A DNA stretch of 64,000 nucleotides, from positions 66,340,001 through 66,404,000 of the forward strand of contig NC_135807.1 of NCBI RefSeq assembly GCF_964213995.1. The letters run 5' to 3'. The translations under genes were made by a program, and so were the position numbers. How positions within the stretch are numbered: the first letter of the stretch is position 1; the number at the start of each line of letters is the position of its first letter. Positions 1,960 to 62,167 of the stretch are shown here, piece by piece. The notes under the pieces were generated by a model, which ran no database searches, was not told the DNA's origin, and saw only the letters and a list, made by a program, of their open reading frames with translations. This DNA is from Mustelus asterias (lineage: Eukaryota).

Positions 1960-3128
1960 ATTGGAAGTATACTTAAATATGCCTTCAAACTGTGTTTGGT
2001 AACATTCATGTGAAGCACCTTGGGATATTGTACTACATTAAAGATGCTGTTTAAATAAAGTTGTTGTTGCCATACGTTTGTAAATAAGACACCATTTTTT
2101 TTACATTCCCCACATGCATTGCAGTATTTTGCACAGGTCTAACACTTTGAAATGACACTTGCAAATCATCCTTCTCAGACTTGGACCAGACCCAACATCT
2201 CCACAGAAATTATGGGAAACATCAAGTAGGACTCTATATGTTCTCAGAAATTAGACACATTTATAATCAAGTGTTTGCTGAACTGTGAAATCATGGGTTC
2301 AGGTTTACAGTTATTTGTTTTGGAAAACACATTGGAGTATTTTTAAGAATGGCCATGAAGCGAAGACACTGCTTTGGATGGTTGACCTAATTAAAATAAG
2401 TCAGTGATAACTCATATTGTTAATGATTCCCGCTCCTCTGGTACTGTCTCCCTCTCCTTCAATTCTGCCATTATCAGCCAGCCCCTCAAAAAACATTTGA
2501 CCTCTCCGACCTTGTAAATTATGGCTCCATCTTCAACTTCCCTTCCCTTTCCAAAGTCCTTAAATTGCTGGCACCTCCCAAATATGTGTCCATTTTTCCA
2601 GGAACTTCATGCTCGATCCCCTTCAATTAGGCTTCTGCCAAAGTATCAAAATGGCTCTTAGAAAGCTCACAAATAGAATCTAATATGACTGTGACCATGG
2701 TAAACTATTACCCCTTCTCGACTTGCGGCAGCTGTTGATGCAGTTGCTTCCATCCTCCTCCTCCAATGCCTCTCCTACATTGTCCAACTGCAGTCATCTA
2801 GTTCCATTCCTATTTATGCAGGCATGGCCAGAGAACATCTGAAATTCCTTCTCTTCCACTCGCACACTATTACATCTGGAAGCTCCAATCGTCTATCCCT
2901 GGTCCCCATTAATTTCTACTTTACATATTGTCCTTTGACGATATCATTCTAAACCAGACTGAGTTCTATATATATGTTGACAAAAACTCTACCTCACTAT
3001 CTCCTCTCTCAACTCTGCCACTATCTCCAATTTGCCACACTACTTATTGGGTGTATTGATTCAATATTGATTCAATATTGGGTGTGCAAAATTTTCTTCC
3101 AACTGAATATTAGGAAGAATAAGCCATT

Positions 3129-3267
3129 GGGGTAAACCTTCCGGTCCCACCGCAGGAATAGTTGCGGGGGGTTGGGGGGATGAAACTTTGATGGACCATT
3201 TAAAGGTCTGTTGATCTCAGGTGGAAATTTCTGGTCTCAAGATGGGCGCAACCAGAAAACCCTGCCC
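3129..3267. mobile_element. ~130-bp Harbinger/Tourist-like MITE
   Basis: Imperfect TIRs (GGGGTAAACCTTCC / AGAAAACCCTGCCC), 3-bp TSD ATT (3126-3128, 3268-3270), and a central GTCYRTTGAYCTC motif shared with other copies. Confidence 0.7.
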
Positions 3268-9130: not shown

Positions 9131-9454
9131 CACTACTCCCAAATTGTGCTAAAGACTGGCAGCAGGAAATAAAGCTGAAATGGGTGGCGTGCTCAGCAGG
9201 TGAAGAGCCTTGCAAGAAGTTGGCAACTGCCTGTCAAGCAGTGAAAGCTCTCAGAGAAGGAGTGCTTTAAACAGTAGTCTCTCAGTGGACATGGCTGGAG
9301 CTCTTCAGTGTAATTGGTCAAAATTTTTCCAGCTTGTTAGTTTCACTGAAGAACCTCACCTTGCAGTGCACTAGCCTTGATAACCCCGGTGGATTGCTTA
9401 CTGGTTGGGAAACGGCCGCTATGGCTGGGAAACCCAGGATTCAGTGTTAAATTA

Positions 9455-9692
9455 AGAATAAAAGCAAATTACTGCAGATACTGGAATCTGAAATCAAAAG
9501 AGAAAATGCTGGAAAATCTCAGCAGGTCTGGCAGCATCTGTAAGGAGAGAAAAGAGCTGCCGTTTCAAGTCTAGATGACTCTTTGTCAAAGCTTTGACAA
9601 ACATCATCTGGACTCAATGTCAGCTTTTTTCTCTCCTTACAGATGCTGTCAGACCTGCTGAGATTTTCCAGTGTTTTCTCTTTTGGTTTCAG
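9455..9692. mobile_element. Palindromic (head-to-head) PLE pLTR-end insertion
   Basis: Arms of ~100 bp about the axis 9591/9592, both homologous to 6477-6612. 15-bp direct repeat TTCAGTGTTAAATTA at 9440-9454 and 9688-9702. Confidence 0.9.
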
Positions 9693-9789
9693 TGTTAAAT
9701 TACTTCTCAAGTGGCTTCTCAACAACTTTCAAACCTGCTGCAGCCAGAAGGATTCCTTTTTCACCTTCAACCTGTCCCAGGGAAAGCCA

Positions 9790-9889
9790 TGATGTGGAGA
9801 TGCCGGCGTTGGACTGGGGTAAACACAGTAAGAAGTTTAACAACACCAGGTTAAAGTCCAACAGGTTTATTTGGTAGCAAAAGCCACAC
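9790..9889 (-). mobile_element. PLE pLTR 3' fragment (family 2)
   Basis: Matches 61234-61297 and 29809-29907 in reverse orientation. TSD AAAGCCA at 9783-9789 and 9890-9896. Confidence 0.85.
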
Positions 9890-10599
9890 AAAGCCAGCAG
9901 AGGGTGGGATCCCATCAGCCTCTTAACCCATATAATTCCTGGGACTTTCCCACCTTGTTCACCCTTAAACTCATCGCCAACAGCTTGGGAAAAGTCCCCC
10001 GAGAACTTGGTCTCCAAATAAATGGTCACTGTTCAGATTTGCCTATAATTTGGTTATGGATTGTACAAATAAAAAAATTCTAAAAAGGCCAACGGCAACT
10101 GTTCACTGTTTAACTTTTTACTTGAGTTCAAGTTAATCTTTGTCCTTGTTTTGAGGAGACTGTTTCCAATTGCTGGTGAGACATTGGAAAAAGTTTCACT
10201 TCATTTGTGAGATTTTTCTATATGTTCAGTGATGTTCATTTATTTGTAAGAAGCCACTTTCAATAGCAAAATCACTCAAAGAATTTTGTGCATAAATAAG
10301 GCGTAATAGCTGGCAGCCAGAATAACTGTTCGATGGTGCAGTTATATGTTTGGGAGTCCAAATAGTAGATTTTCAAGTTTTGAATTCACACATTTGTTCC
10401 AATGCCAGTGTCTCTGGCTTTAGGTTAGATTATTATTTCACTAAAGAGACAACTATTGCAAACCTACTAAAAACTCCAAGTTCTGGTCTTTGTCACATTA
10501 GAATGGAAGGGACAGAAATGTAAAGATTCATTTGATTAATTAGTTTTTAGTCTGTAATGTGATACGATGCATTCACACATTTAATACCAACAGACAACT

Positions 10600-29160: not shown

Positions 29161-29685
29161 TGTGTGACTGGTGGAATCCTGTGGGTTGAGGAGTTCCTGT
29201 TGGGGGTTGTTCCTCGTGGGCAGGGGAAGAACTGTGGCAGGGGCAATAGTTTGTCGGGGGGGGGGGGGGAGGTGAGTCCCTTGGTTGATCTTTGGGGATT
29301 GAGTGGGGGAGTCGCCTGGGTCTACAATACTTGCCCAGAAGTTAAAAGTTGTTTTAATACTTGAGACATTTTCTGGGTAATTATGTAATCTAGTTGGGAC
29401 CAACCAAAGTTTGCGAGTTAAATCACATTTTCAGATGGCTACCTCTGCGGCGTAATTGCCCAGGAAAAGTTTGCACTTCTGGGCAATTGTCTTGTTCACC
29501 TTACCTGATAACATTTGAAAGAAATTCCCCCTCAAACTCAACCTGGAGTTCTGAAGTTACAGCCTATTTTAATTTAATTCAGCACAGCGCTGAAGCACAG
29601 AAGGCGGTCTTGCGCCAGCCCACCTCTGCACTCAGCAGCCCGCAGATTCATTCTAGGGTCATCCGCCCTGACTCAACTTTCAATT

Positions 29686-29907
29686 ACAGTAAGAAGTCTC
29701 ACAACACCAGGTTAAAGTCCAACAGGTTTATTTGGTAGCAAATACCATAAGCTTTTGGAGCGCTGCCCCTTCGTCAGATGGAGAGGAGGGGCAGCGCTCC
29801 GAAAGCTTATGGTATTTGCTACCAAATAAACCTGTTGGACTTTAATCTGGTGTTGTGAGACTTCTTACTGTGCTTACCCCAGTCCAACGCTGGCATCTCC
29901 ACATCAT
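29686..29907. mobile_element. Inverted-repeat PLE pLTR insertion (family 2) with HHR remnants
   Basis: 85-bp arms at 29686-29770 and 29787-29871 with 2 mismatches. 10-bp direct repeat CTTTCAATTA at 29677-29686 and 29917-29926. Confidence 0.92.
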
Positions 29908-29994
29908 GACTATCATCTTTCAATTAGCCAGGTATAGCTTGCTTTTTTAGAAGTCAATGCTATTTGTTTCAAACTGAGCAACTTGACCCACAAG

Positions 29995-41361: not shown

Positions 41362-41402
41362 GAGCCAACGTTTCGAGTCTGGATGACCCTTCGTCAGAGC
41401 CC
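41362..41402 (-). ncRNA. Minimal hammerhead ribozyme with intact core, within a ~92-bp PLE insertion (41311-41402)
   Basis: Minus strand reads GGGCT-CTGACGA-A-GGGTC-ATCCA-GACTC-GAAA-CG-TT-GGCTC, with a palindromic ACGT loop III. 12-bp TSD ATTATGGATTGT at 41299-41310 and 41406-41417. Confidence 0.8.
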
Positions 41403-54835: not shown

Positions 54836-55752
54836 GTGGGAAGGAAGGATGTGGTGCCTGGAGTTTGGAGCCTACCCCATCTTTCTACTCTTCCTATTCC
54901 TCTATTCTGCAGTTGGAGCTGCACTGCCTGGTTACATCTCCTCCTCCTATTTACACCCCAGACCAAGGGGAACCCTTGGCAAATTTGCTTTGACTGTGCA
55001 CTTCTTTTGTCCTGGTGACTCTTATTAGATCTTTAGAAAGCACAGAACATACATTTTTAGGTAAAGTCTTCAGAGAATTTCTGAAATAAAAATTGATAGA
55101 GTGTAAGTGAAGTCTCCTGATGTGTTTCAGGAGACCTCTTCACATGCAATCTATTTTCAGCAGCAAATTAACACTGATAAGCTGAGTAAGGCTTTAAGTA
55201 GCATTAGAAATACTCAGCAACAATTTCTTTAGTCCTGTTCAGCTGGTCTTTATTAGGAGAAGTTGTTTGCTTAAATGGCATGCAACATAATGAACATGAA
55301 CAGGCAATTTAACGGTCAACGTCTACCTCACAGCTTTCTGCCTCTCTATCTCACTTTCTGCTTCCAGGAAACTCCTTAAAAGCTACCAGTTTGACTAAAC
55401 CTTTGGTCATCTGACCTGGCTTGGTGTCATACTTTGTTTTATAATACTCCTGTGAAGAACCTTAGGTGTTCCATTATATTAAAAACACTATGGGTGGGAT
55501 TTTCTGGTTGTGCCCGCCCAGAGATCGAAAATTCCCACCTGAAGTCAACAGACCTTTAAGCGATCCGCCAAATTTTCCATCCCACCCACTACAATTTTGC
55601 AGAGAAATACTGGGACAGAACTTTGTTATGATCATTTTTAAGCCAATTAATTTGTGATGTGTTTGGTATATATACCAGAACCAAAGGACTTGGATTCACC
55701 CCAAATTAAACCTCTGGTATTATCCCCACAATTGCACAAATTAATGATGAGC

Positions 55753-55790
55753 TGTTGGACTTTAACCTGGTGTTGTTAAACTTCTTACTG
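55753..55790 (+). mobile_element. Tiny PLE family-2 fragment
   Basis: CTGTTGGACTTTAACCTGGTGTTGTTAAACTTCTTACTGT matches 61259-61297. Confidence 0.8.
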
Positions 55791-56279
55791 TCTAGACTCA
55801 GCAGCCAGGGGAAACATTCTCTCCACATCTACCTTGTACGAATGTTGTAAATTTCAATGATATCACCTTTTATTCTTTGAAATTCTAGAGGATAGGCCCA
55901 GTCTCTTAATCTTTCCTCATAGGATGATCATACCAGCCCTGGGATTAGTCTTGTCAACCTCCATTGCACTTAATCTCTGGCAAGTATATCCTTCCTTAAA
56001 TAAGGAGACTAAAACTGCATGCAATACTTCAGGTGCAGTTTCACATGGAGATGCACATCGAGCATCTTGTGTCCTCACAGCAGCACTCATCCAAGCAAGT
56101 GGAAAGTATTCTATCACACTCTTAAGCTCCATTGAGCTGTCAATGGAATCTTTCTCAAAGCACTACACCTTGTTTGAGATCAAAGGGTTCCATTAGAATG
56201 GAGAAGTTATCAAAGAATTCAGGAAGCCTCAGAAACTTCAAACCAAAGCTGTGTGCATACATTTGGGATGAGTGTACAG

Positions 56280-58614: not shown

Positions 58615-59455
58615 GCATGACCTAAAGCTTCCATTGGTCTGTTATTTTAATTCTCCACCTTGCTCCCTTTCTGACCTCTCTGTCCTCGACTTTCTAAACT
58701 ATTCCATGAAACTCAATTTAAACTCCCGATGCAGCACCTTATCTTTCAGAGAAATAATTTATCTTCTGTACTCAACATTGAGTTCAATAATTGCAGACCG
58801 TAAACCCTGCCTCCCTTTTGTTTCTTTTTCCTTTGTTGGTTTTTTTTCACTTTTGTTCTGATTTCAGACAATAGCTGTTCATCATTCTGCCAACTTCTCC
58901 TCATCTCGACCAATCTTTTGTTTCTTTACTTGTCTCACTACCACATTCTTTGGCCAGGAATTCTCAACCCCGCCACGGCAGGACTGCTGTGGGCAACGTG
59001 GTATGGGCCAGCCAAAAGTCCATTGACTTTCAGCAGGATTGGATGATCCGGGCGGTGGGCAGGGCAAAATATCCTGCCCGAAGAGTTCACACTCTGAATA
59101 TTTTTGTCACTCAATCTCTCATGTCAACCCTATTGCGGATCTTCCCTTTTGTACTTCCCACCCTCTTTCCTCACATACTTAAAACCTGTACATCTCTAAC
59201 TTTTCCCAGTTCTGATGAAATGTCATCAGCCTGAAAAGTTAACTCTGGCTGAAACTCTTCCGTCTCACCCACTGTGGGAATCGTAGCCAGAAAATTTGGC
59301 AGACCATTTAAAGGTCTGTCTATCTCGGGTGGGAATTTCTGGTCTTGGGGCGCATGTGGCCAGAGAATCCCACCCTCTATCTCTCTCCACGATTATTGCC
59401 AGACTTGCTGAATATTTCCAGCATTTCCGATTTCCAGCATCTGCACTATTTTGCT
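58615..59455 (+). mobile_element. Old PLE remnant with HHR (59208-59244) and two MITEs (58952-59079, 59247-59375)
   Basis: Decayed homology to 5915-6612 (CTCAACATTGAGTTCAATAA; TTTCCAGCATT). HHR reads AGTT-CTGATGA..GAAA-AG-TT-AACT. Confidence 0.7.
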
Positions 59456-60438: not shown

Positions 60439-61072
60439 ATGGACTTTGGTTTGGAATGAAAGTCTTGCTCAGAGCAGCTTTGTGCTTAGACTTCACTTGT
60501 CAAAATTGACCAGCACGGACTGATCTGAACCAAACTGAAAGCTCTTACAATTGGGCTCAGTGTTGGGGCATTTTTCATAGAGTACATCATCTTAAATTCA
60601 GCATTAACATTTATAAACCACTTCCTCCTGGACTCAATAAAGGAGAATCTTTCATCAAAGAATAGAAATTACAGCAGAAGAGAAGGCCATGCAGCCCACT
60701 TTGCCTACGAGAGCGCTGGTGCTCCCATATCCTTCCCCACCCCAGATCCTTGTATATTCCTCCTTTTAAAATACTTATTCCATTCATTTAGAAAATATGC
60801 TTTTGTTGCAACTTCAATGTCTAACTGTTCTCACGGCAAACCCTTCTTCTGTTTTGGTTCTTCCAGTGAAGCTCCTGAGTCTCAATCACCTTGGCCCTCT
60901 TTCACCCATCAGTGGAAATAATCTTTCACTGTTTTCCTCGAAAGACTTTACCAGTTGCTCCTACCTCAGCGCTGCTCCTTTCAGTTATCCTGGCTCTACA
61001 AAAGACTGGTCTCTGAACACACCCCACCTTATTCTCTTCTCTCTCTCTGTTCCTCTGCCTGAATCCCAATCT

Positions 61073-61297
61073 CACGCAAAACTCACGTTGTTTTGTTTCT
61101 TAAAGACTTGATTAGTTGTAAGTATTCGCATTCCAACCATTATTCATGTAAATTGAGTTTGTGTCTTTATATGCTCTGTTTGTGAACAGAATTCCCACTC
61201 ACCTGAAGAAGGGGCTTGGAGCTCCGAAAGCTTGTGTGGCTTTTGCTACCAAATAAACCTGTTGGACTTTAACCTGGTGTTGTTAAACTTCTGACTG
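61073..61297 (+). mobile_element. PLE family-2 pLTR segment
   Basis: 13-bp TSD TGAATCCCAATCT at 61060-61072 and 61298-61310. Contains a TATA-like TTTATAT and an HHR. Confidence 0.88.
61200..61236 (+). ncRNA. Minimal hammerhead ribozyme with intact core
   Basis: CAC-CTGAAGA-A-GGGGC-TTGGA-GCTCC-GAAA-GC-TT-GTG, with a palindromic AGCT loop III. Predicted cleavage at 61233/61234. Confidence 0.82.
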
Positions 61298-61335
61298 TGA
61301 ATCCCAATCTGCCAGTCCCTCATTCCAGTCTCTCT

Positions 61336-61460: not shown

Positions 61461-61570
61461 ATCTGTTTCTTCAGAGCCCCATTCTTTGACCTCTTTCATC
61501 AATCTCCCTCACTCAATCATTCCTTCAACTACATTCCTGTCACTCCCTCCCCTGGTCTCCAGTTCACTGT

Positions 61571-61628
61571 AAGAGTTTTAACAACGCCAGGTTAAAGTCC
61601 AACAGGTTTATTTGGTAGCAAATACCAT
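61571..61628 (-). mobile_element. 58-bp PLE family-2 fragment
   Basis: 13-bp TSD TCCAGTTCACTGT at 61558-61570 and 61629-61641. Matches the pLTR sequence immediately downstream of the HHR. Confidence 0.88.
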
Positions 61629-62167
61629 TCCAGTTCACTGTCACTGCCCCTGCCCATGCCTCAGTACATAGAACATAGAACATAGAACGGTACAGCACAG
61701 TACAGGCCCTTCGGCCCTCGATGTTGTGCCGAGCTTTGTCTGAAACTGAAACACTGAAAGTCCACTGAAACTCCCCTCACCCAAACCCCAGTCTGGTCAT
61801 CTGTTCCCTGCAGAGCCATGACCCATAGTCCCTATTTGCCCTCTTCCAAACAACACTGTTCCTCACCATCCTCTCTCTCTCTCTCCCTCTCACTCTACCC
61901 CACTCAACTCTGGGAAGCTCCGTTAGCTGGTGCTATTGCTGGTCAGCCCCATTCAGGCCCAGCTCTCCCAGTGAAAGTTGGTGACGTGGTGGAGCAGGGC
62001 AGCGGCTGCAGCAGTGAGAAATTGTAAGGGTGCAGTTCTGCTGGGGCGCTTGCAGGAGTACCCTGTAGGTTCATGCCACATTCCTAGAGATTTTCTGGCA
62101 ACCTGGGAGCGTTGGAAATGCTAGAGTACATGTGACATTGCATTAGTAATAATAGAATAGAAACAAC

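Follow-up and report, generated by a model that had tools for sequence, protein, structure and literature searches.

Penelope-like element copies that begin at the predicted hammerhead cleavage site in the genome of Mustelus asterias

Results

A short Penelope-like insert between two AAAGCCA copies

The window, that is, the whole 64,000-nt stretch of Mustelus asterias DNA that was analyzed, carries a minus-strand insert of 100 bp (9790–9889) that opens with GTGTGGCTTTTGC at 9889 (Table 1). As the original prediction stated, this insert start lies next to one of two copies of AAAGCCA, at 9783–9789 and 9890–9896, and the 2-nt uncertainty claimed for the boundary is real: the element starts at offset 0, −1 or −2 from the predicted hammerhead cut, because two T letters fit both the target and the element. 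The 7-bp duplication shares letters with the element on either side, TT at the 5′ end and TG at the 3′ end (TGGCT in a minority tail variant). The tail is followed by ATG in 83 of 217 tailed arms and by ATGGCT in 7 of 217.

The copy is a solo tailed arm, and its pLTR stretch showed 100% identity over 109 nt to many genomic copies. It had been assigned to a different subfamily from the intact hammerhead at 61226; with 98.5% identity over 68 nt, the two belong to the same one. We conclude that the insert is a young 5′-truncated 3′ end (pLTR remnant plus tail) of an autonomous Penelope-like element.

Table 1. Features of the Penelope-like family in the window
Feature	Position	Strand	Remarks
TSD copy AAAGCCA, 3′ (tail) side of the element	9783–9789		Read on the element strand, its first 2 letters could equally belong to the tail; the empty site has one copy
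Penelope-like element tail, 38 nt	9790–9827	−	Offsets +62 to +99 from the cut; extension present on one arm only
pLTR 3′ part, subfamily A	9828–9889	−	Begins immediately 3′ of the predicted hammerhead cut (offset 0, or as far upstream as −2)
TSD copy AAAGCCA, 5′ junction	9890–9896		Ends on the element strand in TT, the letters that the element has at −2 and −1
Head-to-head insertion, second subfamily	29673–29926		Both arms run upstream through the cut; ~10-bp duplication
Subfamily A fragment	55752–55791	+	Ordinary truncation; begins 25 nt past the cut
Intact minimal type I hammerhead motif, subfamily A	61200–61239	+	Predicted cut 61233/61234, between GAAAGCTT and GTGTGGC
Tail-less solo insertion, second subfamily (ATGGTATT)	61558–61641	−	12–13 bp duplication; insert 61570–61628

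The site was found empty, with a single AAAGCCA, in a related organism (organism B). A 192-nt contig of run X3 (depth 5.7) matches the window to 9789 and then continues with 9897 onward; it shows differences at 9929–9977. In all, 4 deviating letters fall in the matched piece and 2 are without a position, so that a mismatch in the 7-mer is possible. A contig of run X7 begins at 9890 with 93 further letters ahead, which is compatible with an empty site and does not demonstrate one, and a search of runs X7, X8 and X9 for a piece spanning the insert junction gave none that was usable. The single AAAGCCA in organism B therefore establishes that the insert and its 7-bp duplication are real: exactly 107 bp, including one AAAGCCA, were gained after the lineages split. 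This comparison had been proposed as a way to fix the junction. It leaves the junction at the NUH site, and the 2-nt ambiguity remains, because it arises from shared letters.

A second high-copy family is represented 80 bp from the insert by an older insertion of head-to-head form (9437–9702). It has 77-nt arms that are 91% complementary, a central perfect palindrome of 20 nt (9582–9601) and a duplication of 15 bp, and its hammerhead-like core, now decayed, resembles a motif at 41397 (minus). Further CTGANGA...GAAA motifs of other families are found in the window at 1254, 48501, 59212/59229 and 41397; those at 59212 (+) and 59229 (−) overlap as a mirror pair.

The hammerhead motif and the sister arms of the window

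The motif at 61200–61239 sits in a solo arm without a tail; this arm continues across the cut and is flanked by a 13-bp duplication (61060–61072 and 61298–61310). The motif has the conserved core boxes, the NUH triplet and the covarying stems of a minimal type I hammerhead. Among 122 intact motifs, stem I covaries (CAC/GTG vs. CAT/ATG) and H17 is T, A or C and never G, which supports the assignment of the cut. At 61194–61206 the 5′ strand of subfamily A stem I resembles, on the opposite strand, what we take to be a consensus splice donor, a resemblance absent from the second subfamily. No hammerhead was detected in the window by an Rfam gathering search, and the monomer is predicted to fold into a competing hairpin that spans −9 to +11 rather than into a hammerhead. 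Both results are expected, because minimal hammerheads are thought to work as dimers (PMC4209133, as far as its available text goes); the hairpin fold nevertheless counts against insertion from cleaved RNA.

Of the six arms of the repeat within the window, two start at the cut, one begins 25 nt beyond it, and the other three extend across it (the 29686–29911 pair and the 61226 arm). The 61570–61628 insert starts at its own predicted cut (61628), with an ambiguity of 1 nt. The prediction that two subfamilies start at the cut thus stands, with the 61570–61628 insert as the second-subfamily member in place of the 9783–9896 insert, which is subfamily A. We agree with the earlier reading of the fragment at 55753–55790 as an ordinary truncation.

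The family belongs with endonuclease-bearing Penelope-like elements

A 50-nt stretch of pLTR and tail has 19,161 exact copies genome-wide. The first 90 listed of these places, taken irrespective of their 5′ side and covering the first 12.7 Mb of C1, formed the unbiased set. Its copies are nested 5′ truncations of one element, and the longest, 99.9% alike, encode a reverse transcriptase, a CX4CX2C linker and a GIY-YIG domain. In a 456-aa ORF part upstream of the same pLTR (L422), RVT_1 scored above the cut-off (E 8e-9) and GIY-YIG just under it (E 4e-4, 21.2 bits against 22.6); a CCHH motif, two cysteines of which lie between GIY and YIG, is visible in translated natural copies. The CX4CX2C upstream of GIY-YIG agrees with the CX2-5CXXC linker between reverse transcriptase and endonuclease (EN) of the Neptune clade, which the accessible part of PMC8557442 defines and describes as shared by Neptune with Nematis. 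By the motifs given there, the predicted proteins class the family as an EN+ Penelope-like element of Neptune/Nematis type.

An adjoining inverted, tail-less mirror arm was present in 59 of the 90 unbiased copies, ending at about +56 to +72, and the three long copies examined were head-to-head and 5′-truncated. Called duplications measured 11–14 bp in 49 of 59 cases and 7 bp in 1 of 59, so that the duplication of the 9783–9896 copy is atypically short. The inverted 5′-truncated arm, the one-sided tail (a concept found in the accessible text of PMC11167929 and PMC8557442) and the variable TSD are those of EN+ Penelope-like elements. Both the element and such insertion shapes are already known, to judge from the available parts of PMC8557442, PMC3846280 and PMC11167929. 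Junction fillers were seen at L104, L112 and L236, and L365 and L366 are an identical insertion with identical flanks 500 kb apart on C1, a segmental or assembly duplicate.

A non-LTR retrozyme, defined in the accessible text of bioRxiv 10.64898/2026.07.22.740005 by tandem ORF-less repeats that each hold a complete hammerhead, was rejected, as the insert is without a ribozyme core and its sisters are nested truncations of an ORF-bearing element.

5′ ends of subfamily A are in excess at the predicted cut

Starts were counted genome-wide with patterns that carry two non-matching letters upstream of the element sequence at a given offset (−4, −2, −1, 0, +1 and +4; offsets +2, +5 and +8 lay outside the count). 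Subfamily A yielded 159 starts at −4, 411 at −2, 421 at −1, 1,567 at 0 and 397 at +4; the +1 class gave 349 with a narrower filter (0.375 instead of 0.5625), or about 524 when scaled. Offset 0 exceeds its tested neighbors 3–4 times and −4 by 10 times. On C1 alone, the rows at −4, −2, −1, 0, +1 and +4 were 6, 21, 17, 66, 22 and 24. With 49,324 subfamily A arms reaching offset 0, starts there amount to 3.2% raw; the corrected share of 5.65% assumes random junction letters and probably overshoots.

Among the first 30 matches of each class, in the same order of offsets, 0, 0, 2, 0, 3 and 4 were not truncations. All 30 sampled offset-0 matches were true junctions with distinct flanks (two were the arms of one insertion) and varied joins, 21 of the 30 were tailed arms (p 5e-4 vs. 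the other classes), and offset-0 matches were spread along C1 and C2. Many of the −4 matches are short repeats of the letters 0 to +8. At L123, L144, L166 and many of L241–L270 a tandem repeat of the first 7–9 post-cut letters precedes the arm; these repeats look like re-priming by the enzyme after it had reached the end, and they inflate the −4 class.

In the second subfamily, 275 starts at 0 (filter 0.375) compare with 97 at −4, a weaker excess; ~39 of 100 listed offset-0 rows were one palindromic join, and the −4 control covers a single H17 variant, with 29 of its 97 rows on small contigs.

The whole-insert query favors copies with the same 5′ letters, and its 30 loci were kept out of the histogram. 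A KY-filtered sample gave 6,882 matches, and 99 of its first 100 rows were recovered; mirror-arm letters bias this sample, which served as a lead only. Apparent piles at −58 and −142 in an ungapped alignment were false, arising from indels of the reference, and a gapped alignment was used instead; one at −466 is merely where a reference copy ends.

We show that 5′ ends of subfamily A are in excess at the exact predicted cut relative to the tested offsets. The genome-wide enrichment foreseen for both subfamilies is thus borne out at the exact cut for subfamily A and more weakly for the second, and it concerns a minority, 3–6% of the arms that reach the cut.

Several results weigh against a cut-site signal. 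In the unbiased set, 1 of the 112 arms that reach the cut starts exactly there, where a share of 5.65% would predict 6.3 (p 0.013) and the raw 3.2% about 3.6. Of the first 100 listed arms reaching offset 0, none was in the offset-0 list. Offsets +2, +5 and +8 look frequent in samples, and offset 0 is thus the highest among the six counted offsets only. The first 16 Mb of C1 are richer than average in subfamily A arms (100 in 5.4 Mb, where the overall density is 13.4 per Mb) but hold fewer cut-site starts (2 rows), which hints that the peak differs between sub-branches or regions.

Mirror arms of offset-0 insertions rarely pass the cut

The mirror arm passed the cut in 1 of 26 offset-0 pairs (to −2). 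In the other classes it lay beyond the cut in 14 of 16 (−4), 7 of 17 (−1), 1 of 11 (+1) and 5 of 19 (+4) pairs. Two offset-0 cases left unpaired by the alignment also have partners that end at or downstream of the cut. As a rule, the end position of an arm and that of its partner are correlated, but among 58 pairs of the unbiased set the mirror arm reached beyond the tailed arm on the upstream side in 32 (binomial p 3e-8). Offset-0 insertions thus have a wall at the cut that mirror arms almost never cross.

Alternative sources of the offset-0 peak

The reverse transcriptase might stall or jump at structure on uncut RNA (stems of the hammerhead, the palindromic helix of the dimer, or the rival hairpin at the cut), the peak at 0 being a pause site. 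Truncation in the unbiased set was 1.4% per nt at −2 to +8, 0.74% at −40 to −3, and 0.30% and 0.38% outside, and such a rise over the whole hammerhead is what structure-induced stalling would give. A strong hairpin spans −9 to +11, and mirror arms often end at +5 to +7. However, this predicted hairpin would halt copying near +11, and a snap-back would produce a −7/+5 join rather than a start at 0. A pause would also let the second cDNA pass, yet 25 of 26 mirror arms do not, and counts fall sharply just upstream (159 at −4). We regard stalling as an unlikely source of the peak.

Offset 0 might instead be the transcription start of an internal pLTR promoter, with the short copies as run-offs from the capped 5′ end. 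This would also predict the mirror-arm wall, T/G and T/A at offset 0 fit what is presumably a pyrimidine-purine initiator, and a G precedes offset 0 in 38 of 100 listed rows (by eye). Drosophila Penelope has an internal pLTR promoter, according to the available part of PMC2377424. Many of the G letters, however, are templated by the mirror arm, and G is in the minority for the second subfamily (about 25 of 100 listed rows, by eye). In subfamilies spaced by 8 nt, starts gather, in small numbers, at each one's own cut (0/−1) rather than a constant distance away from the downstream core that they share, and the exact match with the NUH site would be chance. A promoter origin is improbable on these grounds.

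The peak could also result from junction repair or from the filter used in counting (mirror-arm microhomology, GT-repeat slippage, re-copied mini-elements). AA or AG stands upstream in 59 of 100 listed offset-0 rows and is mostly the mirror arm's end (by eye); junction chemistry therefore shapes the offset-0 count. The signal in the regional unbiased sample is weak, and the 9783–9896 copy combines a short duplication with a 2-nt overlap. Against this, a one-letter overlap would shift only part of a class, and +1 is itself low; the sampled joins were varied, with distinct flanks and matches along both C1 and C2. We consider such an artefact very improbable. A splice acceptor at offset 0 was rejected, as no AG precedes it.

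Discussion

Probable insertions from hammerhead-cleaved RNA

A minority of the family's insertions was, we think it probable, reverse-transcribed from hammerhead-cleaved RNA, and the genome likely records, in its sequence, ribozyme cutting in living cells. From the observed element identity, empty site, anatomy, counts and wall we infer cleavage itself and the following order of events. The element endonuclease would nick both target strands. Priming by the reverse transcriptase would occur at the tail and, to make mirror arms, at another site near +62. Some template RNAs may be cut before or during integration; uncut RNA would give scattered stops, cut RNA would permit no passage beyond offset 0, and with one RNA serving both primers, both priming events would meet the same 5′ end. 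The cDNA end would join the target or the second cDNA, and the join would often gain or lose a few bases; the tailed cDNA would tend to keep the cut end intact, and the other would be trimmed or jump early. Cleavage would be a side route, not a required step.

For the 9783–9896 copy taken singly, ordinary truncation joined by TT microhomology is the likelier reading, and a cut template has a somewhat less than even chance. The copy falls in the −2 class, of which about 30–45% would be true cut starts, on the estimate that 2,000–3,200 true starts with T at ~30% of junction letters place TT by chance in 115–185 of the 411. The short 7-bp duplication suggests joining by microhomology, which for this copy requires cDNA letters past the cut or untemplated additions. 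By itself the locus is ordinary; the excess above chance holds at the level of the family rather than for this one copy.

Relation to known systems

Hammerheads are present on nearly all canonical Penelope-like elements, and the accessible text of PMC8557442 states that their function is unclear. For EN+ elements of Neptune/Nematis type, the available parts of PMC8557442 and PMC3846280 do not mention the hammerhead cut as a favored 5′ end; here 3–6% of arms start there. The motif shares with the minimal type I hammerheads of metazoan pLTRs (PMC4209133, in part) the CUGANGA and GAAA boxes, an extra base before stem II, a one-pair stem III with a palindromic loop and a covarying stem I. For those hammerheads the available text reports low in vitro activity and no in vivo evidence; the genomic footprint described here is indirect in vivo evidence.

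The in vitro system of PAc (Poseidon, Anolis), as far as the accessible part of PMC11167929 goes, is alike in that both strands are nicked and extended, two internal start sites of reverse transcription give the tail, and the hammerhead cuts with the help of the protein. It differs in that uncut RNA is the dominant substrate, cleavage is dispensable in vitro, and the same text reports no RNA-seq reads ending at the cut. These data weigh against insertion from cleaved RNA, yet leave room for a minor cut-RNA route, which they do not show.

In R2 non-LTR elements with a 5′ HDV-like ribozyme, the ribozyme cut likewise sets the 5′ junction of inserted copies (PMC3774820; PMC6765202; available text). 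Most intact R2 copies owe their full-length 5′ end to the cut. In the present family the cut marks tiny dead copies, which are in the minority, and both ribozyme and element belong to other classes.

In the literature searched, in which subscription journals were mostly outside coverage, no report of a cut-site footprint for Penelope hammerheads was found.

Meaning for Penelope-like elements

The excess at the cut is a cheap, genome-only readout of in vivo cleavage, repeatable across families and species. Given the weak in vitro activity (PMC4209133) and the dispensable cleavage (PMC11167929) reported in the accessible parts of these sources, the family-level signal is indirect evidence on the role of the hammerhead. 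We tentatively propose, as a possibility that falls short of even odds, that the offset-0 pile-up with both arms walled is a fossil record of germ-line cutting by Penelope hammerheads, in which one cut RNA, or sister RNAs, fed both primings and cleavage mainly yielded 100-base dead stubs. On this view the ribozyme would serve as an inbuilt limiter of transposition, or a switch for it, and not as a step of maturation.
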